DNA from: Promethearchaeota archaeon
GTDB lineage: Archaea > Asgardarchaeota > Lokiarchaeia > Sigyniarchaeales > SOKP01
Reading direction: 5' to 3'
NCBI GenBank assembly: GCA_048938025.1
Contig: JBHLMP010000010.1
Span: 1-64,000 of the forward strand
Length of the DNA stretch: 64,000 bases
Under the pieces are notes generated by a model. That model made no database searches and was not told the DNA's origin. It saw nothing but the letters and a program-made list of their open reading frames with translations. Both the position numbers and the translations under genes were made by a program. The number at the start of each line of letters is the position of its first letter. The stretch's first letter is position 1. Below are positions 5,270 through 20,134 of this stretch, piece after piece.

Positions 5270-5926
5270 ATGAAATTCTTTATAGATACAGCAAATTTAG
5301 AACAGATTAAAGAAATGCAAGATTTAGGCATAATTGATGGGGTAACAACAAACCCAACGTTACTTTCAAAAGAAGGTGCAGAACCTATAGAACAATTGAA
5401 AAAAATTTGTGAAATTGTTGATGGGCCAGTCAGTGCAGAAGTTATAGGTTTAAAAACAGAGGAAATGGTTAAAGAGGCACGTGAATTAGCTAAAATTGCT
5501 CCAAATATTGTAATTAAAATTCCTATGACAAAGGAGGGAATAAAAGCGGTTAAAATTTTGGAATCTGAAGGAATCAAAACTAATGTTACTCTAGTATTTT
5601 CTCAGAATCAAATTTTAATAGCTGCCAAGGCAGGAGCTTCCTATATTAGTCCTTTTATTGGAAGATTGATGGACAACGGACAGGATGAGATTGATATGTT
5701 ATGGGAATCAATGCAAATTATTAATGCTTATGAATTTACATCTGAAATAATAGTAGCGTCTGTAAGAAATGCAAGACATGTAATAGAAGCAGCGAAAATG
5801 GGAGCTCATATAGCAACAATTCCATTTGCTGTCTTAGAAAAGATGTTTATCCATCCAAATACTGAAAAAGGATTAAAAGCCTTCCTTGATGATTGGGAGA
5901 AATTAAAAAATCAATTAAAAAGTTAA
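5270..5926 (+). CDS. tal: Transaldolase (short FSA-like family)
   Basis: [22 protein letters not shown] (Schiff-base Lys), [15 protein letters not shown]. Confidence 0.92.
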
Positions 5927-5935
5927 AAATGTAAT

Positions 5936-6934
5936 ATGACTCTTATTGATAACATAAAAGAATGGAAGCAAAAAAAGATCTTAATAATTGGAGAAGCTTT
6001 AGTAGATAAATATATTACGGGTTTTGCTGATCGAATTTCTCCTGATGCTCCAGTTCCAAATATAAAGATAGAAAATAGCTCAACTTATATAGGGGGAATT
6101 GGATTAGTCTTACAATATATAAAATCTTTAGGTGGCATTCCTGAAGTTTGTACCGTAATCGGCAATGATTTTGAAGGAGATTTCTTTTTAAAACAAATTA
6201 AAGAGTTAAACATAGATTCATCTGGTATCCTAATGGATGATAGTATAAATACCCCTCAAATCACTCGTGTAAAAGCAATGAACCAACATCTTTTACGTTT
6301 GGAGACAGATTATAATATACAGATCTCTGCGTCAATAATAGAAAAATTCTTTAAGATTGTTGAAACGAGATCTAAGGATATAAAGGCAATCTTGATTTTA
6401 GATTATGGCACGGGAGATTTATTTAGTGATCTTTTTATTCAAAATTTATTGGGGAAATTAAAAAAGAATTATAAGGAGATTCCCATTATTGTGCGTCCTA
6501 ATACCTCAAATTATTATCTTTATGAAAATGTGGATCTAATAAAGATAAACCTACAAAAAGCACTACAAAATTTTTCAATTGATTGTTGTAATGAAACAAG
6601 TGTTTCTATAGTTGGAAAGAGAATTTTAAATTTATCTAAATGTAAATCTGTTTTATTAAATTATTTAGAAACTGAATCTTACCTTTTTTCTCAAGATTAT
6701 GAAAAAGTAGAGAAAATATTTCCTATTTTAAAACAACCTGCTAGAAGCTTTGTAGCAGTCGGAAGTGTAATAATGGCTGCTTTAGGATTATCTTTTGCAT
6801 CAGGTATTTCTATAGGTGATGCTGCAAAAATAGCTCTTTATGCCGCTGCCCTTACAGCTTCTTTACCTCCCGTAGAATTTTATAATGCTGATAAACTAAA
6901 AAACTACATTTTACCTTTTTTAAAAGATAAATAA
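5936..6934 (+). CDS. RfaE/HldE domain-I-like (PfkB-fold) heptose kinase homolog with degenerate active site
   Basis: RISPDAPVP, QHLLRLE and DYG.G match the HldE kinase domain; the DVTGAGD motif reads SFVAVGS. Confidence 0.8.
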   Translation: MTLIDNIKEWKQKKILIIGEALVDKYITGFADRISPDAPVPNIKIENSSTYIGGIGLVLQYIKSLGGIPEVCTVIGNDFEGDFFLKQIKELNIDSSGILMDDSINTPQITRVKAMNQHLLRLETDYNIQISASIIEKFFKIVETRSKDIKAILILDYGTGDLFSDLFIQNLLGKLKKNYKEIPIIVRPNTSNYYLYENVDLIKINLQKALQNFSIDCCNETSVSIVGKRILNLSKCKSVLLNYLETESYLFSQDYEKVEKIFPILKQPARSFVAVGSVIMAALGLSFASGISIGDAAKIALYAAALTASLPPVEFYNADKLKNYILPFLKDK

Positions 6935-6955
6935 ATTTATTATTTGGGTATAAGA

Positions 6956-7801
6956 ATGGAGTTATCTAAAACAGATGAAAAAAAGCTTTTAATCGATATT
7001 CTAGCAATTAAGAAAGATATTTTAAAGATGATATATCAGGCTCAATCAGGTCATCCAGGTGGTTCACTTTCTTGTGCTAATATAATTTATCTTCTTTATA
7101 ATAACATTATGAGAGTTAATCGAGAAAATCCTCAATGGAACGAAAGAGATATTTTCATTTTAAGTAAAGGGCATGCGGCACCTGCTTTGTACGCTGTTTT
7201 ATCTAAAATTGGTTTTATAAAAAGAGATGAATTGTTTACTTTAAGAGATTTTGGCTCAAACTTGCAAGGGCATCCTGTAAAGAATCCAACATTTGGAATT
7301 GAGGTTTCAACAGGCTCACTAGGTATGGGATTATCTATTGGTGTTGGTTGTGCTTTAGCTGCGAAACTAGATAATAAACCCAAAAATATTTATGTATTAT
7401 TAGGAGACGGTGAATTAGATGAAGGAGCTATTTGGGAAGCGGCCTTAGCAGGGAGCCATTATAAGTTAGATAATTTAATTGCTATTGTCGATCGAAATGG
7501 AATACAAATAGATGGTTCTACCGAAGAAATAATGGGTTTAGAACCATTAGCTGATAAATGGAAAGCCTTTGGATGGGAAGTTATTGATATTAATGGTTCA
7601 AATCTAAATGAAATGATAAAAGGTTTTAATAGAGCTAAACAATTTATAGGTAAGCCTAAAGTAATTATCTCTTATTTAATAAAGGGTGCAGATATTTCTT
7701 TCATGCAACATACTCGAAGATACCATGGACGTGCACCAAATAAAACAGAATATGAAAAAGCTCTAAAAGAACTTGAAGAAATTGAAAGAAGTATAGTTTG
7801 A
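6956..7801 (+). CDS. Transketolase, N-terminal (TPP-binding) subunit
   Basis: SGHPGGSLS, LSKGHAAP, LQGHP, STGSLGMG, GDGELDEG. Confidence 0.93.
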   Translation: MELSKTDEKKLLIDILAIKKDILKMIYQAQSGHPGGSLSCANIIYLLYNNIMRVNRENPQWNERDIFILSKGHAAPALYAVLSKIGFIKRDELFTLRDFGSNLQGHPVKNPTFGIEVSTGSLGMGLSIGVGCALAAKLDNKPKNIYVLLGDGELDEGAIWEAALAGSHYKLDNLIAIVDRNGIQIDGSTEEIMGLEPLADKWKAFGWEVIDINGSNLNEMIKGFNRAKQFIGKPKVIISYLIKGADISFMQHTRRYHGRAPNKTEYEKALKELEEIERSIV

Positions 7802-7814
7802 GGTTTATCATCAG

Positions 7815-8747
7815 ATGCCAGAAACAGATCTTAGAGATACTTTTGGAAATTTTTTAGTTGATATGGGAAAGGTAAACAATAATATTGTAGTTCTAGATGC
7901 TGATCTCTCTTCCTCTACTAGGACTTTTAAATTTGCTAAAGAATTTCCAGATAGATTTTTTAATATGGGCGTCGCTGAACAGAACATGGTTGGTACAGCT
8001 TTAGGACTTGCAATTTCCGGTAAAATTCCAGTAGTTAGTGGTTTCACTATATTTACAACTGGGAGAGCATGGGAATTTATAAGATTTGCTTGTCATGATA
8101 ATTTAAATATTAAGATTATAACTACCCATGGAGGAATTGTAGGTAAAGATGGAAGTACTCATAATGCACTAGAAGATTTAAGCTTAATGTCAATTCTTCC
8201 AAATTTGACAGTATTGATACCTTCAGATAATTTTGAACTTATCAAAATATTAGAATATACATTTAATAAAGATGAGCCTATTTATATCAGATTACCAAGA
8301 GGTGCTTTTCCTACAATTCATGATGAGAATTATCAATTTTCAATAGGTAAACCTGATATCTTAAAAGAAGGTGATGATATTTGTTTAATTGGAACTGGTT
8401 ATGGTAGTATATTAGCTTTAGAATCTGCTTTAGAAATCCAAAAAGCACTAAAAATTTCTATAAAAGTAATTAATCTTCCAAGTATTAAGCCAATTAAAAA
8501 AAATAAATTGATTAATGAAATAAAAAGCACAAAGGGGGTTGTTGTTATAGAAGAACACAATATATATTGTGGTGTAGGTAGTATATTAGCAAGAATTATA
8601 TCTGAAAATAATCCTCTTCCTATGAAATTTATTGGTGTAGATAATTCATTTGGGGAATCAGGGAAAAGAGAACTTTTATTAGATACTTATTCTTTAAATG
8701 TGAAAAATATTAAAGAAAAAATAATAGAATTAATAAAAGTAAATTAA
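7815..8747 (+). CDS. Transketolase, C-terminal subunit
   Basis: LDADLSSST, GVAEQNMVG, DG.TH..LED, YIRLPR, EEH...GVGS. Confidence 0.92.
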   Translation: MPETDLRDTFGNFLVDMGKVNNNIVVLDADLSSSTRTFKFAKEFPDRFFNMGVAEQNMVGTALGLAISGKIPVVSGFTIFTTGRAWEFIRFACHDNLNIKIITTHGGIVGKDGSTHNALEDLSLMSILPNLTVLIPSDNFELIKILEYTFNKDEPIYIRLPRGAFPTIHDENYQFSIGKPDILKEGDDICLIGTGYGSILALESALEIQKALKISIKVINLPSIKPIKKNKLINEIKSTKGVVVIEEHNIYCGVGSILARIISENNPLPMKFIGVDNSFGESGKRELLLDTYSLNVKNIKEKIIELIKVN

Positions 8748-8761
8748 AAAGAGATTCGATC

Positions 8762-9307
8762 TTAATTTGGTAAATATCCCATTTTATCTAAAGCTTTTAA
8801 AATAAATTGCTTACTTTCCTCGACTGTTTGTTTATCTGTTTCAACCACTATATCAGCTGTATCAGGTTCTTCGAAAGGATGGTCAATACCAGTGAAATCT
8901 TCTATCTCTCCTGCTCTTGCTTTTGAATACATTCCTTTTATATCTCTTTTTTCACATTCCTCAAGAGAGCATTTTACATAGACGAGAATATACTCTCCAA
9001 TTTCCTTTCGAGAATATGCTCTAATTTTATTGTATGGTGATACGAATGACGCGAGTACAGCAACCCCATTACGGGTCAATAATTTAGCAACAAATGTAAC
9101 TCTCTCTATATTCATATTCCTATCTTCTTCTGTAAATCCTAAATCTCTTGTTAAACTCTTTCTAACTATATCACCATCAAGGCGTTCTACTTTCATTCCT
9201 TTTTTTCTTAATTCATCTGCTACAGTATTAGCAAGAACTGTTTTTCCGGAACATGGGAGTCCGGTAAACCATAATGTAAACCCTTTATGTTCCATTTCTT
9301 CTCTCAT
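8762..9307 (-). CDS. cysC: Adenylyl-sulfate (APS) kinase
   Basis: WFTGLPCSGKT P-loop, LDGDIVR, LGF...DR..NI.R, RD.KG.Y..AR, FTGID.PFE.P. Confidence 0.95.
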   Translation of the reverse strand: MREEMEHKGFTLWFTGLPCSGKTVLANTVADELRKKGMKVERLDGDIVRKSLTRDLGFTEEDRNMNIERVTFVAKLLTRNGVAVLASFVSPYNKIRAYSRKEIGEYILVYVKCSLEECEKRDIKGMYSKARAGEIEDFTGIDHPFEEPDTADIVVETDKQTVEESKQFILKALDKMGYLPN

Positions 9308-9310
9308 CCT

Positions 9311-10699
9311 TTAAAAATTTATTATATTGCCTTCCATATCAAAGGGTACTTCTATTCCTAAAATATTAAGAGAAGTGGGAGCTATATCAAGAATATTTTT
9401 TACTCCTAAATTCTTACCAATTTTCTTCTTTGGATCATAAATAATATATACACCATACCAATCATGAACAGCATCATCAGGACCTATGTCATTTTCATCT
9501 AAATAGATTGAATCGTACCCTACTGTTCCAGCAGATCTCCAATTCAAATCATCGAAATACACCATTAAATCAGGAGCATCTCCCCGTATAATTTCAAATA
9601 ATTCTTCGGGTTTGTAAACCTTCGTATTCATAGAATTTCCATTGACATCTTTGATATTTTTTAACATGATTGCAATCTTATCACGCATTTTTTCGTACTC
9701 TGCTTTTTTAATAATACCATTCGGTTCTCTCCCTTCTAAATTTAAAAATATTCGGGCATAGTATCCTCCCCAACCCCAAGCATATGTATTATTCCAATCT
9801 ATATCTGCATCCTCGATTCTTGTTTTTTGTTTTGGCTTTGTCTTAAATTTCAATAAGCCTAAATCTTCAAGTGCCATATTTATGCAAATTAAACCTTTCA
9901 TTGCTTTTGCGCCATGATCAGATACGATCATAATAACTGTATCGTTATCTAATAAGTCTAAAATTTCTCCAACTTTTTTATCTAAATAATTATAATATTT
10001 TCTAATTTCCCCTTCGAATTTGTTGTTAGGCTTATATTTTTGATGTCCTTTATCATAATATTTCCAAAATGCATGATGAACTCTGTCTAAACCAATTATT
10101 ACAAATTTAAAATAATCCCAATCCTTATTTTGTATCAAATATTTTACAGTTTTAAAGTGAATTTCTGTCATATTATAAATTTCATCTAATAAATCCTCTT
10201 TATTATCCACTCTGAATTTAACATCAAAAATGTATTCTCCTATTTTATTTATAATCTCTTCCTTGAGCTCAGGTGGATAAGTAAATTCTGTGGTATTATC
10301 AGGAGTAATAATACTGGAAACAAGGTATCCATTAATTTTTTGAACAGGATATGTTGGTGGCAATCCTAAAACACATGACTTTAATCCTTTATCTCCAATT
10401 ATATCCCAAACTTTTGGTTCTTTTACATTATGAGAGGTTGCTATCCAATAATCATTATATAAATTTTCTTTTCGGTGTATAAAACCGTATAATCCTAAAG
10501 TACCTGCTTTTTTTCCTGTTGACATTACCATCCAGGCTGGTATTGTAATTGGAGGATCGCTAGACCTAAGTTTCCCGTAGACTCCTGAATCCATTAAATT
10601 TTTTATATTGGGGCAATCATCTTTAAAATCTTCAAAGAGAGTTCTTGGAGTTGCACAGTCCAAACCAATAACGATTAATTTTTTCTTATTTATGGTCAT
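9311..10699 (-). CDS. Alkaline-phosphatase-superfamily (NPP/phosphodiesterase-like) metalloenzyme
   Basis: IGLD, PPITIPAW (Thr nucleophile position), DRVHH, VSDHG, DDAVH, DIAPT.L; no CxPxR sulfatase motif. Confidence 0.85.
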   Translation of the reverse strand: MTINKKKLIVIGLDCATPRTLFEDFKDDCPNIKNLMDSGVYGKLRSSDPPITIPAWMVMSTGKKAGTLGLYGFIHRKENLYNDYWIATSHNVKEPKVWDIIGDKGLKSCVLGLPPTYPVQKINGYLVSSIITPDNTTEFTYPPELKEEIINKIGEYIFDVKFRVDNKEDLLDEIYNMTEIHFKTVKYLIQNKDWDYFKFVIIGLDRVHHAFWKYYDKGHQKYKPNNKFEGEIRKYYNYLDKKVGEILDLLDNDTVIMIVSDHGAKAMKGLICINMALEDLGLLKFKTKPKQKTRIEDADIDWNNTYAWGWGGYYARIFLNLEGREPNGIIKKAEYEKMRDKIAIMLKNIKDVNGNSMNTKVYKPEELFEIIRGDAPDLMVYFDDLNWRSAGTVGYDSIYLDENDIGPDDAVHDWYGVYIIYDPKKKIGKNLGVKNILDIAPTSLNILGIEVPFDMEGNIINF

Positions 10700-10762: not shown

Positions 10763-11911
10763 TTAAACTATAAATGGATTTTTATATCTTAGTATTACTT
10801 CAGCAACTTCTGGACGCATAACCCCAGTGCTAGGTGGTCTTCCAGCCTGTAATGCCGCTCTAATCTCTCTTCCTGCAAAATATTTTTGCATATCAGGAGG
10901 ATGCGGGCAGATCTTATCATTAATAATAGCATCACACTTAATACATTTTGAAAAAGATCTAAATTTAATTGGTTCAATACCCAAATCTGGAAACTCATCA
11001 AAGATTTTATGAGCATCATAAGGACCATAATAATCGCCAACTCCAGCATGATCTCGTCCGATAATAATATGGTCACATCCAAAATTTTTTCTTGCTATAG
11101 CATGGAAAATGGCTTCTTTAGGTCCAGCATATCTCATTTCTGTTTCAAATGTACTTAACACAACTCTATCTTTAGGATAATATTCTCTTATAAGCGCTTT
11201 ATATGCCTCAATTATTACTTCATCTAAGAAATCACCTACTTTCTTCTTTCCAATCACAGGATTTATAAAAAGACCATCAACATAAGTCAATCCTGCTTTC
11301 TGAATGTATTCATGGCCTAAATGAGGAGGATTTCTAGTTTGAAATGCTACAACTCTATCCCAACCCTTTTCCTTGAATAAAACTCTCGTTTCAAGAGGTT
11401 TTAAATCTAAATATGAAAAAACTGGTTTAGGTTCATTAATTAAGAAAATCTCTCCCCCAATGAGTTTTTCTTTATAATTGAAAACACTATTTACTCCAGG
11501 ATGGTTCTGATCCAATGTAGCATATGTCTTTTCTGCATATTCCTTCTTCTCGTAATCAAAGATGGTCTCTATATTCATCAGTGCTATTGGAATTCCACCA
11601 TCATCTGTAAGAATTAATTTATCATCAGCTTTTATATTTTTGATTTCCTTTTCTGAGACGTCCAGAGTAATTGGAAATGGCCAGGCAATATCATTCTCTA
11701 AATACATAGTATCTAATACATAATGATAATCATTTTCATTCATAAATCCCTCTAAGGGACTGAAAGCTCCAAAACAGATGTTCTTAATCACTGTAATTGT
11801 CTCTGGTCTGACTTCTATTTTCTCGAATTCGTTAATTTCTCCTTTTATCCTTTCTTTTTCGATTTTTGGCAAGATTTTATTTATTAAAGTTCCACCATGC
11901 GGCTCTATCAT
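10763..11911 (-). CDS. sat: Sulfate adenylyltransferase (ATP sulfurylase)
   Basis: PHGG.L, FSPLEGFM, AFQTRNPPHLGHE, MRYAGPKEA.FHA..RKNFGC.H.I.GRDHAGVG, MRPEV. Confidence 0.96.
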   Translation of the reverse strand: MIEPHGGTLINKILPKIEKERIKGEINEFEKIEVRPETITVIKNICFGAFSPLEGFMNENDYHYVLDTMYLENDIAWPFPITLDVSEKEIKNIKADDKLILTDDGGIPIALMNIETIFDYEKKEYAEKTYATLDQNHPGVNSVFNYKEKLIGGEIFLINEPKPVFSYLDLKPLETRVLFKEKGWDRVVAFQTRNPPHLGHEYIQKAGLTYVDGLFINPVIGKKKVGDFLDEVIIEAYKALIREYYPKDRVVLSTFETEMRYAGPKEAIFHAIARKNFGCDHIIIGRDHAGVGDYYGPYDAHKIFDEFPDLGIEPIKFRSFSKCIKCDAIINDKICPHPPDMQKYFAGREIRAALQAGRPPSTGVMRPEVAEVILRYKNPFIV

Positions 11912-11961: not shown

Positions 11962-12201
11962 TTAATCTATGTATCCCAAATCTCTTAATCGCTGTTTTAC
12001 TTTTTCTTCTTCTTCTTTCGTGAATGCCTGTTTTGATCGTTCTTCAGATTCAATTGATGATAAAACTTGTCTAAGTACGTAAGTTACATAACTTGAAACC
12101 GAAGAAAAACCAGTTCCTTTCATCCGTTCCTTAATTTTCTCGGCAAGAGGTTTAGGTATTGAAACCGTTGTGTATTCTACTTTATATTCCTCTTCAGACA
12201 T
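11962..12201 (-). CDS. Small ribbon-helix-helix (CopG-like) protein with acidic C-terminal LRDLGY tail
   Basis: TTVSIPKPLAEKIKE...GFSSVSSYVTYVLR fits an RHH pattern; ends EEEEKVKQRLRDLGYID; first gene of the sat operon. Confidence 0.82.
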   Translation of the reverse strand: MSEEEYKVEYTTVSIPKPLAEKIKERMKGTGFSSVSSYVTYVLRQVLSSIESEERSKQAFTKEEEEKVKQRLRDLGYID

Positions 12202-12346
12202 TTTCTTATCAATTTTAATTAATTTTAATTATATATAATTAGATCACATTAAAAAGCATTACTTTTTAATGAAGTTATAAAAATGTGGAAAAAAATCTCT
12301 TACCTTATACTAAAATAAGAAAACCTTTAAAACTTGAATATACAAA

Positions 12347-13447
12347 TTATTTAGTTAAACATCGTTCCATAATTATTTTAGTTATTCTTTTAGCCGTTTG
12401 GCCATCCCATTTTTCAATTGTTTGCCCATTTTTGTAATTATTAGAGAAAATTTCATAAACGTATTTTTTAATTTTCTTAAAATCTTTATTAACAATAGTA
12501 TTAGTTCCTTTTTCCACAGTTATAGGTCTTTCGGTTTTTTCCCTTATAGTCAAGACGGGAATGTTAAGATATGATGCTTCTTCTTGTATTCCTCCTGAAT
12601 CTGTTAAAATAAACCTAGAATTTAACATTAAATTTAAAAAATCCAAAAATCCAACTGGCTCATTAGTAATAATATTTGCTTTATTGATACTTGAAATTAA
12701 ATCAAACTTCTTCAAATTCATTTTAGTTCTAGGATGCACAGGAAAGAATATTTTAATTTTTTTTTGAATAAAACTTAGGATTTCCACAATTTTTTCTAAA
12801 TCATCTTTATGATCTACATTGGAAGGTCTATGACAAGTGACTAAAGCATATTTTTTCTTTTCTAATTTGTATTTTTTAAGAACATCAATATTATTTGATC
12901 TTTCCAAATTCATTAGTAAATTATCTATCATGATATTTCCTACAAAAAATATTTTCTCAGGAGAAATTCCTTCTTTTCTCAAATTAATCTCTCCGCTTTT
13001 TTCAGTTGTAAATAAATAATCTGAAATTTGGTCAGTTAAAATTCTATTAATTTCTTCAGGCATTTTAAAATCAAAACTCCTTAATCCAGCCTCAACATGG
13101 GCAACTTTAATGAAGATTTTTTTAGCAACCAATGCACATGCAATAGTGGAGTTAACATCACCTACAACAATAACTAATTGTGGTTTCTCTTCAAGAAGAA
13201 CTTTTTCAAACTCAATCATTATTTTTGCAGTTTGGACAGCATGAGATGCTGAACCGACATTTAGATAAATATCGGGTTCTGGAATTCCTAAATTATCGAA
13301 AAATATTTTTGACATATTATAGTCATAATGTTGTCCAGTATGGATTAATTTATATTCAATATTATTAATTTCAAATTGCTTTATCAAAGGAGCAATCTTC
13401 ATAAAATTTGGCCTGGCTCCTGCAATAAGAAAAACTAGATTAGACAT
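12347..13447 (-). CDS. wecB: UDP-N-acetylglucosamine 2-epimerase (non-hydrolysing)
   Basis: GARPNFMK, HTGQHYD, HVEAGLRS, PEEINR, TDSGGIQEE, TERP. Confidence 0.94.
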   Translation of the reverse strand: MSNLVFLIAGARPNFMKIAPLIKQFEINNIEYKLIHTGQHYDYNMSKIFFDNLGIPEPDIYLNVGSASHAVQTAKIMIEFEKVLLEEKPQLVIVVGDVNSTIACALVAKKIFIKVAHVEAGLRSFDFKMPEEINRILTDQISDYLFTTEKSGEINLRKEGISPEKIFFVGNIMIDNLLMNLERSNNIDVLKKYKLEKKKYALVTCHRPSNVDHKDDLEKIVEILSFIQKKIKIFFPVHPRTKMNLKKFDLISSINKANIITNEPVGFLDFLNLMLNSRFILTDSGGIQEEASYLNIPVLTIREKTERPITVEKGTNTIVNKDFKKIKKYVYEIFSNNYKNGQTIEKWDGQTAKRITKIIMERCLTK

Positions 13448-13568
13448 TTGCTTTTGATAAATTAAAATATATTGATTCTAATTATTAAAAAATTTAAGAT
13501 TAATTAAAATTTAATCAAAAAAATCCATTTAATTTTAAATCGAATATTAATTTTAAATCAATAGAATT

Positions 13569-15557
13569 ATGATTTCTAAATTATTTAGGAAAGTACATAG
13601 ATTAATAAATAAATATGTTTTTCTTAAATACTATGACAAGAAAAGAGAGATCATAAGAAATTCTTACTTTTTTGATAGAATATTCAAAAAAATGTTTGGA
13701 TCTTTAAGATATGTACAAATTCGTGAATCATTTTTTAATAATCAACTATTTGCATATTCTAATAAAAACGAGAAAGAGAAAATTATTGAATACCTTAATT
13801 ATAATTGTAATGAAGAAATAAGTAATTATCTTCATTATGCTGATAAAATAATTAATAGAGAATTTAATATTTTTGAAATAACATATAAATTTCAAGAAAA
13901 AATCAATTGGCACTATAGCTTTTTTAATGACTTCTCATGGCAATTGCAAAAATCAGAAAACATAGATATACGCCCCCAAAATCAAGAAGTTGATGTAAAA
14001 TATGTTTGGGAATTTAATCGACATCAATTTCTCACTTATCTAGGATTTGCTTATTATTATACAAAAGATGAAAAATATGCAAAAGAATTTAGAAATTTAA
14101 TACTAGATTGGATTAAAAATAATCCTACTCTATATGGTATAAATTGGTATTCTGGATTGGAAATTTCAATTCGTTTGATCTCATGGATTTTTACCTTATA
14201 TTTTTTTGAGAGTTCTAAAGAAATTAATAATGATTTATTTTTTAAAGAAATATTTAAATCAATATTTCAACATGTATATTATTTAAAATATTTTTATACA
14301 CGCCGTGGACTTAATCATACAATTGGAGAATTATTTGGATTATATTTATTCTCTAAAGTATTCAGAAGTTTGAAACCAACCCAAAAATGGGAAAAAAAAT
14401 ACTTAAGAAAATTTAAAAAACAAATAATTTTGCAAACTAGACCTGATGGTACAAATATTGAGCAATCAGTTAATTATCATAGATTTGTTTTGGAATTTTT
14501 CTCTCTTTTTTATATTTTAGATCCTAACTCCTTAAAAAGAGAAGAACGAGATCTCATTGGAAAAATGTATGATTATTTATTATATATAATTAGACCAAAT
14601 GGGACTTTTCCTTTAATAGGTGATTTTGATGATGGAAAAGTTTTATTACTGACGACATATAAAGAGAGTTCATTTATTGATTTGATCAATCTGGGATCTA
14701 TTATTTTTCAAAGAGAGGATTTAAATTTCATTTCAAAAAGAATATTTCCTTCCTCAATTTTATTGCTTGGCCCAAAAGGATACGAAATTCATAATAAACT
14801 TAATAAAATAATACCTAATAATACGTATAAATATTTTAAAAATTCTGGATATATAGTAATACGAAATAATTGGTCTGAGGAATCTAATTATTTATTTGTT
14901 GATTTTGGGGTTTTTGGAGCTAAATCTTCTGGTCATACGCATAGTAGTATTACAAATTTTATCTATTCTTATAAAGGAAAAGATATAATCAATGATTCAG
15001 GAACTTATTCTTATAATAAGTCATGGAAAGAACGTAATTTATTTCGTAGTAGCAAAGCTCATAATATTTTAGTTGTAAATAATCAAAATCAAGCGAAAAT
15101 TAAATCATGGTTTTCATGGGAAGATAAGCCAAAACTTGATAGATCAATCACCATCAATCAAGGGATAGATTTGACTTGTAGACATAATGGATATAAAAGA
15201 TTTTTCGTTGAAAGGAAAATATTGACAACTCAAACTCTAATTCCATTAATTTTGAAAGATAAAGTAATCCCTTTAAAAAATTTGGATAAAAGTAGAATGT
15301 ATAGAATTAATCTGTATCTACATTTTGATAAAAATGCAGAAATTAAACTCGAAAATAATATTATTACAATAAATAAAGAATTAGAGATTGAAGTTTTATC
15401 AGAAGACATTTCAAAAGTAACTTTAGAAAAATTTTATTATTCACCTAATTATGGAATTAAAGAAGAATGTTGGATTTTAAATGTTCATTTAGATAAAAAA
15501 TTTAATAATAATAAATTGACTGAAATCACCACATTAATTCATCGAATAAATAATTAG
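13569..15557 (+). CDS. Heparinase II/III-family protein
   Basis: DVKYVWEFNRHQ, W...NP...GINW...LE, EQS.NYH, P.IGD.D.G, GH.H, DSGTYSY, FRSS.AHN. Confidence 0.88.
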   Translation: MISKLFRKVHRLINKYVFLKYYDKKREIIRNSYFFDRIFKKMFGSLRYVQIRESFFNNQLFAYSNKNEKEKIIEYLNYNCNEEISNYLHYADKIINREFNIFEITYKFQEKINWHYSFFNDFSWQLQKSENIDIRPQNQEVDVKYVWEFNRHQFLTYLGFAYYYTKDEKYAKEFRNLILDWIKNNPTLYGINWYSGLEISIRLISWIFTLYFFESSKEINNDLFFKEIFKSIFQHVYYLKYFYTRRGLNHTIGELFGLYLFSKVFRSLKPTQKWEKKYLRKFKKQIILQTRPDGTNIEQSVNYHRFVLEFFSLFYILDPNSLKREERDLIGKMYDYLLYIIRPNGTFPLIGDFDDGKVLLLTTYKESSFIDLINLGSIIFQREDLNFISKRIFPSSILLLGPKGYEIHNKLNKIIPNNTYKYFKNSGYIVIRNNWSEESNYLFVDFGVFGAKSSGHTHSSITNFIYSYKGKDIINDSGTYSYNKSWKERNLFRSSKAHNILVVNNQNQAKIKSWFSWEDKPKLDRSITINQGIDLTCRHNGYKRFFVERKILTTQTLIPLILKDKVIPLKNLDKSRMYRINLYLHFDKNAEIKLENNIITINKELEIEVLSEDISKVTLEKFYYSPNYGIKEECWILNVHLDKKFNNNKLTEITTLIHRINN

Positions 15558-15678
15558 AGAGCATAATAGGAAGTCTACAATTTGCTTTGAAAGATTCTAA
15601 TACTTAGAGGAATACGATCAAAAAATTAATATCAAAAAAATATTTTAAATAACTGAAAAATCATTATATTTTTCTTAA

Positions 15679-17889
15679 ATGATTCTCATGAAAAAAATAT
15701 TTGTTACTCCGAAAGGTCAGATCATTCTTAAAGAAGTTGAGAAACCGATAATGAAGACAAAAGGTTCTCTTGTTAAAACAAGTTATGCCTTGATCAGTTC
15801 TGGTACTGAATTGTTTATAATTAATTCAGTAAAATTTCAAAATTTATCCATATTGAAAAAATTAATTAAATCAAAAGAATTAAGAAAGAAAGCTTTAGAA
15901 ATAATTAAAAGTACATCATTTAAAAAAACCTATTACTTTTTTAAAGAATATTCAGGTAGAATAAATTCTAAAAAAAACTTTTCTAGCCCTTCTTCACATT
16001 TAATACCAATGGGTTATAGCTGTTCAGGAATAGTTCAAGAATCTAATGTAGAAGATTTTAATAAATTTGATAGAGTAGCATGTGCAGGTTCTAATCATGC
16101 CGAAGAAATCTTATCACCTAAAAATTTGACATGTAAAATACCAGATAATGTTAGTTTTGAAGAAGCTGCTTTTGTTACACTTGGATCAATTGCTCTACAT
16201 GGGATTCATAGAGCTAATATGTGTCCTGGTGAAAATGTCGGTATAATTGGAGTTGGATTAATAGGATTATTAACTTTACAACTAGCAAAAATCAGTGGAG
16301 CTCGTGTTTTTGCTTTTGACTTAATAAATGAAAGACTAAATATAGCAAAAGGATTAGGAGCAGATTATATTTTCAATCCGATTTATTTTAATCCAAAAGA
16401 AAAAGTTAATGAAAAAACTGGGGGAAAGGGACTTGATTCGATAATCATTTGCGCTCATTCAAAATCTCCTAAGCCTTTAGAAGATGCTATAGAATTAATT
16501 AGAAAAAATGGAAAGATTGTTTTACTGGGTTCTTTCCCAATTCAGATTGATCGTGCTAAACTTTATTATAAAGAAGCAGATTTATTAATATCTCGTTCAT
16601 ATGGACCTGGTCGTTATGATCCATACTATGAATTTGAAGGATATGATTACCCTAAAAAATTGGTGCCTTGGACTGAGAAAAGAAATATGAAATTATTTTT
16701 AAAATTAATATCAGAGAAAAAACTTAATGTTAAATCACTGATTTCAGATATTATCCCTGCTGCTGATGCAAAGATCGCATATGAAAAATTAGAAAATAAT
16801 CCAATTAATAATATAGCTATTCTTCTAAAATTTTCACAAGAAGAAAATCAATTAGACTTAATTCCAAGGGAAATGCATTCTGATAAAATTCAAAAAAAGT
16901 TAGTAATTGGATTAATTGGTTGTGGAACATTTGCTCAAACAACACATCTTCCTTTACTTATATCTAATCCAAAATGTAAAATTAGGGCAATATGTACCAA
17001 ATCAAAAACTACAGTAGAATTCTGCAATAAAAAATATAGACCAGAATACGTAACTACGAATTATAATAAGTTATTGAAAGATCCTGAGATTGATACAATT
17101 TTTATATATACTCGGCATGAAACTCATGCAAAAATTTCAATTGAGGCATTAAAATCTAACAAGAACGTTTATGTTGAAAAACCAATGGGTATTACTCTTA
17201 AAGAATGTTATGATGTTTATAATGTTGTTAAAACCTCTCAAAAGCAATACACAATTGGATTTAATCGTCGTTATAGTCCTTATATAAAAATCGCAAAAGA
17301 CCTTCTTAAAAATAGAAATAATCCAATAATAATAAACTATAGAATTGCGAATACATTTCTTTCAGGAGCGCATTGGACATTCGACCCAGGAGTAGGAGGA
17401 GGTCCCATTATCGGTGAATTTTGCCATTTTATTGACTTAATATTATACTTAATGAACTCTGAACCAATTGAATTAACAGCTCGAGGGGGCTCATTAAGTC
17501 ATAAAGATTTAGAAGTATATGATAATTGTATTGTAATAATTAAATTTAAAAACAATTCTATAGCAAATCTTATCTATACTGACTTAAATGGTCCAAATAT
17601 GTCAAAAGAAAGAATTGAAATATTTTGTGGAGATTCTTCTATCATTATTGATGACTTTATTGAATTAAAAACATCTGGGTTTGATTTTGGTAATATGATT
17701 TTAACCCAAGAAGACAAAGGTCATGATAACGAAATTGAAGCAGTTATTAATTCTAATTTGGGCAAAGAAGAACTTTTATTAGATATTGACGATGCTATAA
17801 AAGCAATGAATTTAACGTTTAAAACCATTGATTCGATAAGATTAAATAAGTCAATAAAAATAAATAGTGCTTTTGATGAAAAAAACTGA
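15679..17889 (+). CDS. Bi-domain oxidoreductase (MDR/Zn-ADH-like + Gfo/Idh/MocA)
   Basis: ISSGTE, PMGYS..G, GVGLIG, SRSYGPGRYD; second domain GCGTFA, VYVEKP, GFNRRY, GE.CHFID. Confidence 0.88.
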   Translation: MILMKKIFVTPKGQIILKEVEKPIMKTKGSLVKTSYALISSGTELFIINSVKFQNLSILKKLIKSKELRKKALEIIKSTSFKKTYYFFKEYSGRINSKKNFSSPSSHLIPMGYSCSGIVQESNVEDFNKFDRVACAGSNHAEEILSPKNLTCKIPDNVSFEEAAFVTLGSIALHGIHRANMCPGENVGIIGVGLIGLLTLQLAKISGARVFAFDLINERLNIAKGLGADYIFNPIYFNPKEKVNEKTGGKGLDSIIICAHSKSPKPLEDAIELIRKNGKIVLLGSFPIQIDRAKLYYKEADLLISRSYGPGRYDPYYEFEGYDYPKKLVPWTEKRNMKLFLKLISEKKLNVKSLISDIIPAADAKIAYEKLENNPINNIAILLKFSQEENQLDLIPREMHSDKIQKKLVIGLIGCGTFAQTTHLPLLISNPKCKIRAICTKSKTTVEFCNKKYRPEYVTTNYNKLLKDPEIDTIFIYTRHETHAKISIEALKSNKNVYVEKPMGITLKECYDVYNVVKTSQKQYTIGFNRRYSPYIKIAKDLLKNRNNPIIINYRIANTFLSGAHWTFDPGVGGGPIIGEFCHFIDLILYLMNSEPIELTARGGSLSHKDLEVYDNCIVIIKFKNNSIANLIYTDLNGPNMSKERIEIFCGDSSIIIDDFIELKTSGFDFGNMILTQEDKGHDNEIEAVINSNLGKEELLLDIDDAIKAMNLTFKTIDSIRLNKSIKINSAFDEKN

Positions 17890-17893
17890 AAAT

Positions 17894-18763
17894 ATGCTAT
17901 TTCAAAAAGATTTAGAACTGATTGATACTGTTCAAATTAAATGCAAAAATGCAATTTATTCAACTTATGATGACGATCCAATATTTAATGTTAGGAATTT
18001 TGAAATTATTAATCCGATTTTTTGTTGCGGAATAATTTCTTCCATTAATTCCAAAGTCTATAATTATAAAATTGATGATTCAGTTCTATTTATATCCTTT
18101 AATCAAGATTTGATCATTAAATTATCCTCTAATCTAATTCTTAAATTTTCTGAAAATAATAACTATAAGTTAATCTCAATTATCCCTTATGCTTCTTATG
18201 CTATGAAAATTTTAAGAGTAGTTGATCCAAAAATAGGGCAAAATATTGTGTTAATTGGATTAAACTTTTTTTCAATTCTTTTGAAAGAGTTATTTAGACT
18301 CTCTGGAACAAATGTTTTTATTATTGATGTAGAGGAATACTCCAATAAATACCATAAAGTAGAAGAAAATGATCTTATAATAAATGGATTAGATTCTGCT
18401 TTGAAAAAAATGATTAAATTCCAAATTGATTCTTTAATTATGATATCAGAATTTGATGAAAAAATTCAGAATCTATTATTGAATTTGAATATAAAAAGAA
18501 AATATGAATTGAGTCAAATATCGATATATGATAAAGGATTTGAAGATCTAAATTATATTAAAGGAATAAGATATCCTCATGATTACGTAAGATGGGATTT
18601 TAAGCAAAATCTTAAATATTTTATATTTTTAATCGAAAACAATTTGATAAATTTAGATTTTTTTGATATTCGACTTATTGAAGTTAGTTCTTTGGATGAA
18701 ATGAAAAATTTCATAAAAAAAATTACAGAATCTAATCTTTATTTATTTAATATTGAAAAGTGA
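17894..18763 (+). CDS. Degenerate MDR-like paralog of the N-terminal domain of the upstream oxidoreductase
   Basis: GQNIVLIGL...LFRLSGTNVF..D and GIRYPHDYVRWDFKQNLKYF..LI align with GENVGIIGV...LAKISGARVF..D and GYDYPKKLVPWTEKRNMKLF..LI. Confidence 0.65.
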   Translation: MLFQKDLELIDTVQIKCKNAIYSTYDDDPIFNVRNFEIINPIFCCGIISSINSKVYNYKIDDSVLFISFNQDLIIKLSSNLILKFSENNNYKLISIIPYASYAMKILRVVDPKIGQNIVLIGLNFFSILLKELFRLSGTNVFIIDVEEYSNKYHKVEENDLIINGLDSALKKMIKFQIDSLIMISEFDEKIQNLLLNLNIKRKYELSQISIYDKGFEDLNYIKGIRYPHDYVRWDFKQNLKYFIFLIENNLINLDFFDIRLIEVSSLDEMKNFIKKITESNLYLFNIEK

Positions 18764-18865
18764 TAGAGAATTTTACTAACATTTTTAATGATTTAATAAT
18801 TTGATTTTTAATTATCATTTAAAAGTATTTTTATATTTATTTAATAAAAAATTTTAAGGATTTTA

Positions 18866-20134
18866 ATGAAAATTTTAATAATTTCGAGGGGTTTTCCTCC
18901 TAATATCGGAGGAATTAGTTTTTCATTAAAATCATTTTATGATACTTTCAAAAAAAATCATCATAAAATGACATTATATATATTTCCTTATGATTTTAAT
19001 ACAAAGTATGATTATCCAAGCAATATTTTAAATGTATTTGATAATAAAAAATATAGAATAAGAAATTTAATACAGCTATGTTTAGATACTTTTTATTTTT
19101 TTAAAGTCATTTTGTTATTATCCTGTTCTTATAAATCGAAATTTAAGATTTTTTTGTATTATTTAAAACGTATTAAGCTCTTGATTAATATGATGAATTC
19201 TTATGAGATTTTAAAACATTATGATAAGAAATACAATTATGATTTGATTTTAGCATATGAATCTGGATTATCTGCACACATAGGTTACTTAATTAAGAAA
19301 AAAAGAGATAAAAAATTAATTTTAATTTCTCATGGAAATGATATTTTAAATAAGAAATTGAAAGTTCTAACAAAATTAGTACTTCAGGAAGCTGATAAAA
19401 TAATTGTTAGGTCAAATTTCATGAAAAACTTCGTTTCTTCTCAATATTCTCTTGAGGCATCTAAAATATTTATTTGTCCAGATGGAGTTATATTAAAAGA
19501 ATCTGATGTTCAAGAAACTAAATCTGAATTAAGAATTGAATTAAAAATAGATCAGAGAGAATTCATTATTCTAAGTGTTGGTCTTCTTAATCTAGTAAGG
19601 AAAGGTTACGATTTAATATTGAAAAGTCTTAAATCTTTACGTGATAACTATAGTTTAGATATCAATAATATTAAATATATTCTAATTGGAAGAGATAACC
19701 TTAAAGTAAGAACTTGGTTAAAATCCTTGGCAAAAAAATATGATTTAGAATCAAATTTTGAAATTCTAGTTAATTTATCAAATGATTTAAGAAATAAATA
19801 TTATAAAGCTTCAGATATATTTGTAATGCCTTCAAGAGATTTAAAAAGAGAAGGTAGTGTTGAAGGTTTTGGAAATGTATTTATTGAAGCAGGGTATTTT
19901 TCTCTTCCTTCTGTAGGATCTAATACTGGAGGAATCCCAGATGCTATTGAAAGTGAAAAATCTGGATTTATAGTTAACAATTTTGATGAACTTGTAGAAA
20001 AAATAAAATTATTATATGAAAACAAATCCTTAAGACTGAAAATGGGGCAATTTGCTCATGTTAGAGTACTTAAAACTTTTTTATGGGATAAAATTTATAA
20101 ACTTTATATGAAAACTTTCAAAAGTATTATTTAA
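18866..20134 (+). CDS. Glycosyltransferase family 4
   Basis: FPP.IGGI N-terminus; DIFVMPS...EGFGNVFIEA (EX7E); GGIPDAI. Confidence 0.92.
   Translation: MKILIISRGFPPNIGGISFSLKSFYDTFKKNHHKMTLYIFPYDFNTKYDYPSNILNVFDNKKYRIRNLIQLCLDTFYFFKVILLLSCSYKSKFKIFLYYLKRIKLLINMMNSYEILKHYDKKYNYDLILAYESGLSAHIGYLIKKKRDKKLILISHGNDILNKKLKVLTKLVLQEADKIIVRSNFMKNFVSSQYSLEASKIFICPDGVILKESDVQETKSELRIELKIDQREFIILSVGLLNLVRKGYDLILKSLKSLRDNYSLDINNIKYILIGRDNLKVRTWLKSLAKKYDLESNFEILVNLSNDLRNKYYKASDIFVMPSRDLKREGSVEGFGNVFIEAGYFSLPSVGSNTGGIPDAIESEKSGFIVNNFDELVEKIKLLYENKSLRLKMGQFAHVRVLKTFLWDKIYKLYMKTFKSII

Follow-up and report, generated by a model that had tools for sequence, protein, structure and literature searches.

3′-Phosphoadenosine 5′-phosphosulfate (PAPS) must be supplied for every sulfated glycan, lipid or metabolite, and we know of no account of how archaea control that supply. 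The closest described gene clusters are those of the Thermococcales. In Pyrococcus yayanosii, cluster PYCH_17520-17560 carries a putative copG transcription factor, ATP sulfurylase, a DHH-type 3′-phosphoadenosine 5′-phosphate (pAp) phosphatase, a type I phosphodiesterase/nucleotide pyrophosphatase and adenosine 5′-phosphosulfate (APS) kinase, and the available excerpts of the paper say of the phosphodiesterase/pyrophosphatase that it is "speculated" to degrade pyrophosphate (PPi) (Jin et al. 2021, PMC8268124). In Thermococcus onnurineus the corresponding genes are TON_1704-1707, of which TON_1705 is called a pyrophosphatase in the excerpts at hand (Moon et al. 2015, PMC4463584, citing Lee et al. 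2009). Here we analyze an operon of similar composition from a Promethearchaeota archaeon, within a window of 64,000 nucleotides (GenBank assembly GCA_048938025.1, contig JBHLMP010000010.1, positions 1 to 64,000), and in particular its first gene, which encodes a 79-amino-acid protein with a predicted ribbon-helix-helix (RHH) core and a C-terminal tail ending in Leu-Gly-Tyr (LGY). The window holds this copG-like gene together with genes for ATP sulfurylase (Sat), a PF01663 enzyme of the alkaline phosphatase (AlkP) superfamily and APS kinase (CysC), a likeness to the Thermococcales clusters that lies in Pfam family and operon position alone; whereas P. yayanosii has a DHH pAp phosphatase, the window operon has none between Sat and AlkP. 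Most likely, the RHH gene corresponds to the "copG" already published for a known PAPS operon and is more than a plain regulator. The excerpts of PMC8268124 and PMC4463584 treat copG just as a putative regulator and the AlkP-type enzyme as a PPi degrader, with mention of neither a tail nor a contact between the two. In the literature searched, PMC8268124 was the only paper found on copG with APS kinase, and docking of such a tail was not found; likewise, no work was found on an LGY C-terminal ending of sulfatases, and searches on RHH proteins with archaeal sulfate adenylyltransferase, or on Asgard PAPS sulfotransferases, returned unrelated papers only.

In architecture and proposed logic the window protein matches the RHH type II antitoxins (ParD, TacA, KacA, Bacillus subtilis MazE, RelB and FitA), in which an N-terminal RHH domain sits on its own operator, a C-terminal tail reaches into the downstream partner, and the small gene comes first, adjacent to or overlapping the next. 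The partner here, however, is an NPP-type (nucleotide pyrophosphatase/phosphodiesterase) metalloenzyme within a conserved Sat-AlkP-CysC biosynthetic operon and belongs to no known toxin family; PADLOC gave no match for either the RHH protein or AlkP, the operon shows no sign of mobility or addiction, and sequence identity to the antitoxins is 7-19%, with modest structural Z scores. Metabolic regulation offers further precedents: the C-terminal tails of TnrA and GlnR dock on glutamine synthetase, CymR docks on CysK, and the C-terminal tail of CysE inserts into the CysK active site. These follow the principle we propose here, a C-terminal peptide lodged on a metabolic enzyme in a complex controlled by metabolite occupancy, and the CysE-CysK and CymR-CysK pairs also belong to sulfur metabolism, but their folds, motifs and enzymes are unrelated to those of the window pair. 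Mnt, with its C-terminal tetramerization helix, and NikR, with its C-terminal sensor domain, share the plan of an RHH core plus a C-terminal element; the window tail differs in being one short helix with an invariant LGY end whose predicted partner is an enzyme, not another copy of itself, and in that the same peptide also ends unrelated enzymes.

We propose, and give about an even chance of being right, that the 79-amino-acid protein is an autoregulator of the PAPS operon that is built like an RHH antitoxin and docks its tail in the AlkP cleft. An RHH dimer would bind three TAATTA sites, spaced at 10 bp and overlapping the promoter, while the tethered C-terminal LGY helix would insert into the cleft of the tail-less AlkP, placing Tyr77 beside Thr52. 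The tail would block or gate AlkP, making control reciprocal, and substrate occupancy of the AlkP active site would set the amount of regulator free for the operator. The substrate could be PPi, in line with the published work on the Thermococcales homolog as far as the excerpts go, or possibly a nucleotide-sulfate. The predicted docking points to a previously undescribed coupling of gene control with the state of an enzyme. Should the tail really dock in the active site, a new example would be added of a transcription factor connected directly to the catalytic state of an enzyme in its pathway; the widespread LGY ending of AlkP- and sulfatase-type enzymes, which no annotation covers, would gain a function open to testing; and Asgard and other archaea would prove to have turned an antitoxin-like architecture to the control of metabolism. 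All of the players are small soluble proteins, and the idea is therefore directly testable at the bench.

The RHH-LGY protein and its tail

The RHH-LGY gene occupies positions 11962..12201 on the minus strand (stop codon at 11962-11964) and is present as a single copy in its own 3.52-Mb genome. The protein has the C terminus EEEEKVKQRLRDLGYID, the translation of the open reading frame (ORF) ending in AFTKEEEEKVKQRLRDLGYID, and a first-pass annotation of this DNA, which had read the gene as a 79-amino-acid RHH protein with an LxxLGY tail, was correct on both the frame and the ending. Homology was found for 839 of 845 candidates, the best 120 of them at 90-100% identity, and their source annotations are CopG regulators from Promethearchaeota and other Asgard groups.

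The tail comprises residues 59-79 (11965..12027, minus strand), made up of a short linker, an acidic helix (residues 62-75) and the LGYID end; the codon for Tyr77 is at 11971-11973 on the same strand. An exhaustive search at E ≤ 0.001 gave a family of 927 representatives at 50% identity. Conservation of the tail was judged on 133 aligned sequences, namely, the query and those 132 of the 150 listed representatives that are 60-100 amino acids long. Leu72 is kept in 123 of these, Leu75 in 115, Gly76 in 126 and Tyr77 in 124, with Phe at position 77 in just 2, so that the Tyr on which the first-pass annotation had built its idea is indeed conserved. Most members end one or two residues past the Tyr, and most of the exceptions have the conserved RHH core followed by an unrelated C-terminal sequence. 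A second alignment, A1, consists of the query and 93 representatives picked as full length and tail-ending (94 in total); because its members were picked for the tail, its invariance is partly a matter of selection, and the unselected figures are those of the 133-sequence alignment. Endings of the form L..[LMIV]GY.{0,6} occur in only 6 of the 7,070 ORFs of at least 50 amino acids in the window's genome, and the RHH protein and CysC account for two of the six. Judged from these sequence comparisons, the tail ending of the RHH protein is not a chance one. A word-based search with residues 40-79 for longer tail-bearing proteins gave 2 matches and was uninformative.

The putative DNA-binding core spans residues 9-58 (12028..12177, minus strand), with a strand, a helix at 17-27 and a second helix at 35-58, as predicted by AlphaFold2 (AF2), the structural comparison tool VIA-align and a profile match to NikR. 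The 79-amino-acid protein has no Pfam family above threshold and no NCBIfam match; RHH_1 is reached at E 0.043 (14.2 bits, below the cutoff of 20.5), and of 94 family members, 9 match this model at E ≤ 0.01. The profile of the family matches the RHH domain of NikR at E 0.04. The AF2 model, with a predicted local distance difference test score (pLDDT) of 83 overall and about 92 over the core (residues 11-50), is strand-helix-helix and so has the N-terminal strand and two helices expected of an RHH protein. Almost all VIA-align rows are RHH proteins (NikR, PutA52, Arc, omega, ParG and antitoxins; Z 4.2-6.0). The top rows are the RHH antitoxins KacA, B. subtilis MazE, ParD and TacA (Z 5.5-6.0); NikR, also among the best matches, has the lowest root mean square deviation (rmsd) (Z 5.6, 0.8 Å over 46 residues), and PutA52 gave Z 4.9 with 1.2 Å over 44 residues. 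Foldseek with the model of the RHH protein returned no row at E ≤ 0.001, its weak rows being RHH-like, and a sequence search of the PDB returned a single weak match, to a designed protein.

Two variations on the gene were seen. Several genomes (G009, G012, G067, G144, G216 and G222, and locus L079 at 5815-6448) carry two or three RHH-LGY genes, some of them in tandem, and a few representatives of ~200 amino acids have a second RHH-like domain (DUF7557 or RHH_10) ahead of the RHH-LGY unit.

Predicted docking of the tail in the AlkP cleft

The four genes of the operon lie on the same strand in the order RHH, Sat, AlkP and CysC, with Sat between the RHH gene and AlkP. The AlkP gene (9311..10699, minus strand) encodes a 462-amino-acid, NPP-type enzyme (PF01663, Phosphodiest, E 4.9e-43) with the C terminus ...VPFDMEGNIINF; as the first-pass annotation had pointed out, it stops at DMEGNIINF with no tail. 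The two-metal ligands and Thr nucleophile of the NPP enzymes are present (D14, T52, D216, H219, D261, H262, D408 and H412), all eight fall in columns of alignment A2 (32 AlkP orthologs) that vary little or not at all, and the catalytic string DTDHDHDH recurs in the distant RHH-associated members listed. The AF2 model of the enzyme has a pLDDT of 94, and its nearest Foldseek matches are ENPP1 (4gtw, E 1.8e-18, template modeling score 0.60), ENPP3 and the Xac NPP. No PDB sequence matched AlkP at E ≤ 0.01.

We modeled AlkP (with alignment A2) in complex with residues 50-79 of the RHH protein (with the 94 sequences of A1) in three runs. The interface score ipSAE was 0.81, 0.85 and 0.82 (median, 0.82), compared with 0.02 for the highest-scoring of three controls, among them an unrelated 452-residue protein modeled instead of AlkP. 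The mark used for docking is reached by 116 of 157 solved complexes and by 2 of 215 mismatched pairs, rates that apply here only approximately, as the alignments were our own. At least 92% of the contacts are common to the runs, the partner pLDDT is at least 71, and, with no sequence relative of AlkP in the PDB at E ≤ 0.01 and just one weak match for the RHH protein, reproduction of an already solved complex is an improbable source of the score. In the model, RHH residues 59-60, 64-65, 67-69 and 71-79 contact the enzyme. The tail helix (residues 64-75) runs along AlkP residues 72-74, 86-90, 130-137 and 159-163, with Leu72 against residues 73, 74 and 86, and the LGYID end reaches residues 51-52, 310-312, 390-392 and 403-408, with Tyr77 in contact with the nucleophile Thr52. 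The tail is thus predicted to sit in the catalytic cleft of AlkP with its Tyr at Thr52. The first-pass annotation had suggested that the RHH protein supplies in trans a tail that its enzyme lacks and had raised the question of whether the Tyr enters the active site; in silico, the model supports both.

That annotation had offered two roles for the tail, a Tyr-O-sulfate shuttle, likened to DltX-type carriers with their C-terminal Tyr, and an interaction tag coupling the regulator to the pathway. The first leads to an alternative that we consider distinctly unlikely, in which Tyr77 is itself a substrate or carrier: AlkP would write a sulfate, phosphate or nucleotidyl group onto it (through a Thr52 intermediate, with PAPS, APS or ATP as the donor) or erase one, and the modified tail would signal the supply of PAPS to the operator or transfer the group further. 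Aryl esters of phosphate and sulfate are textbook substrates of the AlkP superfamily, and in the model the hydroxyl-bearing ring lies by Thr52 and the metal site, just where a leaving group or an acceptor would sit. The near absence of Phe at position 77 is what would be expected if the hydroxyl matters, but conservation of Tyr would be expected just as much if the tail were a plug relying on a hydrogen bond. The operon makes PAPS and, by Pfam, includes no ordinary sulfotransferase; ordinary sulfotransferases are nevertheless found in some related operons (L068 and L078), and RHH-AlkP pairs exist with neither Sat nor CysC nearby. Finally, the Thermococcales counterpart is named a pyrophosphatase in the available excerpts (PMC4463584, PMC8268124). 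An interaction tag coupling the regulator to the pathway fits this evidence better than a shuttle does.

Pairing of the RHH gene with AlkP, and the tail in cis

The first-pass annotation had tied its idea to a shared distribution of RHH-LGY genes and the enzymes. Among 301 Asgard genomes, AlkP is present in 106 and RHH-LGY in 93: 86 have both, 7 RHH only, 20 AlkP only and 188 neither. Related genomes are not independent, and we give no weight to a p-value for these counts, but RHH-LGY genes are not distributed independently of AlkP. At the level of loci, we took one genome per species, giving 78 loci, of which 77 have the RHH ORF and 3 were too short. An AlkP-type gene lies downstream of the RHH gene in 63 of the 74 informative loci. 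The order RHH-Sat-AlkP-CysC is nearly constant in Asgard genomes. In Woesearchaeota, Aenigmatarchaeota, Bathyarchaeota, Methanosarcinales and one Aminicenantes bin, Sat and CysC are missing and the RHH gene directly adjoins AlkP, at spacings from an 8-nt overlap to a 62-nt gap, and the bare pair also occurs in two further Asgard lineages (L173 and L174). Behind such pairs there is often a nucleotidyltransferase-like protein and a PHP phosphoesterase.

One protein seen behind bare pairs may be an unrecognized nucleotide-sulfate module. In L067 (4989-6782), L076 (7595-9767) and L075 (1947-2885), from Woesearchaeota, Bathyarchaeota and Methanosarcinales, the RHH-AlkP pair is followed by one or two copies of an uncharacterized protein that starts with MHFYE and whose sole Pfam match is a weak one to NTP_transf_2 (E 4.6e-4). 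A PHP phosphoesterase comes after it in L067 and L076, and in L067 and L072 it is fused to AlkP (838-851 amino acids).

The first-pass annotation had also held that sulfatase- and AlkP-type enzymes often end in this tail themselves, and had raised the question of whether tail-less AlkPs co-occur with RHH-LGY genes more often than tailed ones. The first point holds. A 420-amino-acid Sulfatase-family protein beside the related operon L021 ends EEQEKVLDRLQALGYID, and the LGY motif ends, by pattern match, 97 of its 120 best homologs (down to 37% identity, from archaea and bacteria), with five more having the motif and then a short extension; the nucleophile position in this clade is Thr, not Cys or Ser. 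Five tailed AlkP-type ORFs were also found, in 4 of 20 Asgard AlkP-paralog regions. On the second point, there are observations from both sides. None of the 55 full-length AlkP neighbors of RHH genes has the LGY tail; most stop only a few residues from the P-x-D-x-E-G motif, two continue as fusions into another domain, and one ends differently, in a K-rich stretch. Conversely, no free-standing RHH-LGY gene was found in 80 metagenome loci around the tailed-sulfatase clade, where the RHH profile gave 23 matches among 3,878 ORFs (E 2.7e-7 to 9.5e-4), all of them enzyme tails. The five tailed Asgard ORFs have no RHH gene in the fetched stretch, and in four other AlkP-paralog regions with an RHH gene, each such gene lies beside a tail-less AlkP. 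A closed 4.9-Mb Asgard genome (G264; 96% complete) encodes a 573-amino-acid AlkP-type enzyme with its own LGY tail (contig C1, 4505640-4507172; locus L172), and no RHH-LGY gene was found in it at E ≤ 1e-6, a single case that fits the same pattern. The tail on the enzyme and the tail on the RHH protein thus look complementary, although the samples are small and differently ascertained: one set was collected via RHH genes and the other via tailed sulfatases, the AlkP-centered sample consists of 20 regions chosen from a match list, and many metagenome loci are short, which makes a missing neighbor weak evidence.

A wider reading of this complementarity is possible, though on balance we doubt it. 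The LGY peptide would be a portable pseudo-substrate plug for the AlkP superfamily, present in cis on hundreds of misnamed sulfatases and NPPs, that has in sulfate-activation operons been moved onto an RHH regulator so that occupancy of the active site (by PPi, APS or PAPS) sets the amount of free regulator; in its boldest form, the Tyr would be reversibly sulfated or phosphorylated by the enzyme itself, as a gauge of PAPS supply.

AlkP and sulfatase paralogs that lack the LGY tail show an ending of another kind, K-rich and of the form ...K(L/I)K..(G)K(I/F). It recurs in L171 (8704-12280), L176 (3936-5549), L077 (4450-5973), L070 (4318-5781), P0345, P0348, P0352, P0355 and others, and may be an alternative version of the LGY device.

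LGY-type endings are found on other sulfate-pathway proteins as well. They occur on CysD (L071 and L079), on a PAPS-reductase-type protein (L073) and on a sulfotransferase (L006), and together with the tailed sulfatase of L021 they would be explained if the LGY helix were a general pathway tag that docks sulfate-pathway proteins on a common scaffold or on each other as a metabolon, AlkP being one receptor of several or none. We think this very unlikely. All of these loci were collected via the RHH gene or a tailed enzyme, so that enrichment for the sulfate pathway is partly built in, and in the window's genome the motif belongs only to the RHH protein and CysC, where that of CysC is ancestral. 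CysC (8762..9307, minus strand; 181 amino acids; PF01583, E 1.7e-58) has the C terminus ...ALDKMGYLPN. The first-pass annotation had noted its LDKMGYL ending as akin to the RHH tail, and the ending, LDKMGYLPN, is there. Its residues 172-179, however, align to the native ends of the solved APS kinases 7yq0 (...LMELGYL) and 8a8h (...AQKLGYL); by this alignment it is the ancestral last structural helix of the APS kinase fold. We therefore rejected it as a shared tag in the window, and it is not evidence for such a tag here.

Both of these CysD genes lie behind RHH genes. In L079 (6464-8587) the gene is split by an intein with a LAGLIDADG domain (Pfam Intein_splicing and LAGLIDADG_3), and in L071 (6250-8042) it is followed by a separate LAGLIDADG ORF. 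Both proteins have ...QKLR(A/S)LGYM near the end, with few residues beyond.

Several observations weigh against an autoregulator that docks on AlkP. The LGY endings on CysD, the PAPS-reductase-type protein and the sulfotransferase suggest that the receptor may not be AlkP alone. Eleven of the 74 informative RHH loci lack a full-size AlkP as judged by profiles, yet their tails are intact. Two of the 11 (L071 and L079) have a 243- to 244-amino-acid PF01663 protein behind CysD-CysN, and two others (L068 and L078) have Sat, a sulfotransferase and CysC; in all five genomes with AlkP-less operons that were searched, AlkP paralogs are encoded at other sites; they are distant (28-38% identity), and those that are complete have no tail. 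Nor does conservation of the predicted groove set RHH-associated or tailed AlkPs apart from other paralogs: identity at the 33 interface positions is 0.26 for distant RHH-adjacent enzymes, 0.22 for tailed enzymes and 0.26 for tail-less enzymes without RHH, and it tracks overall identity. With VIA-align, Z stays at about 6 or below, values that the tool calls common, which makes the assignment of the RHH fold reasonable and not strong. The docking itself is a prediction, which says nothing of affinity or of behavior in the cell.

The candidate operator and neighboring genes

Upstream of the RHH gene lies a triple repeat, TAATTA-N4-TAATTA-N4-TAATTA (12216..12241), that ends 14 bp before the ATG and is a candidate operator. 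It occurs once in the whole 3.52-Mb genome (29% G+C). The doublet TAATTA-N4-TAATTA occurs 12 times, two of them at the RHH operator; the other 10 adjoin unrelated ORFs, and a search among them for a regulon found no second AlkP or sulfate gene. In the window, AATTA-N5-AATTA has 11 matches, against 4.9 expected. The doublet is conserved at this position: it is present upstream of 42 of 65 RHH orthologs, compared with 7 of 565 other ORFs from these loci (7 of 161 in an A+T-matched set), and tolerating a single mismatch raises the figures to 59 of 65 for the RHH genes and 31 of 565 for the controls. The repeat is recognizable upstream of the Methanosarcinales and Woesearchaeota RHH genes too. Just upstream of the repeats, a putative TATA-like element, TTTTTAAT, can be read at 12248..12255 (minus strand), and a similar T-rich box stands ahead of the repeats in many related loci. 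Repeats so placed would overlie the site where transcription is expected to begin, which points to autorepression.

Three sites at even spacing would require several dimers to bind cooperatively, and the tail might provide for this. It would then be a self-association helix that links RHH dimers on the three repeats, much as in Mnt, with the contact to AlkP an artifact of modeling and the motif a common helix cap. The tail is kept in operons without AlkP, as such a role would have it, and the LxxLGY motif closes the final structural helix of APS kinases as well and looks like helix 1 of the PG_binding domain (a weak Pfam match, E 0.038), from which it follows that it can be a plain structural cap. 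We nonetheless regard self-association as unlikely. The modeled complex scores 0.82 where the controls, the unrelated 452-residue protein included, reach 0.02; the tail is on 0 of 55 AlkP neighbors of RHH genes but on 97 of 120 members of the clade without RHH neighbors; and in the monomer model the tail helix has middling confidence and is not packed on the RHH core.

The remaining enzyme of the operon, Sat (10763..11911, minus strand), is an ATP sulfurylase of 382 amino acids (PF01747, E 2.9e-83, plus PUA_2; NCBIfam NF003166, 478.8 bits, above cutoff). In X20, the sole RNA run retrieved, the contigs contain near-identical pieces of Sat only; over the RHH gene there is just a 41-base piece with 6 differences and both ends loose.

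Directly upstream of the operon, at 12347-20134, is a sugar-polymer cluster that encodes a UDP-N-acetylglucosamine (UDP-GlcNAc) 2-epimerase, a heparinase II/III-like protein, a 736-amino-acid ADH-GFO/IDH/MocA fusion, an ORF with no Pfam match (17867-18763) and a GT4 glycosyltransferase. No sulfotransferase was found among the window genes scanned; the cluster is compatible with the use of PAPS for a sulfated glycan. On the other side, convergent to CysC at 5936-8747, are a PfkB kinase and a transketolase split into N and C halves, an arrangement that is kept beside the operon in many Asgard loci.

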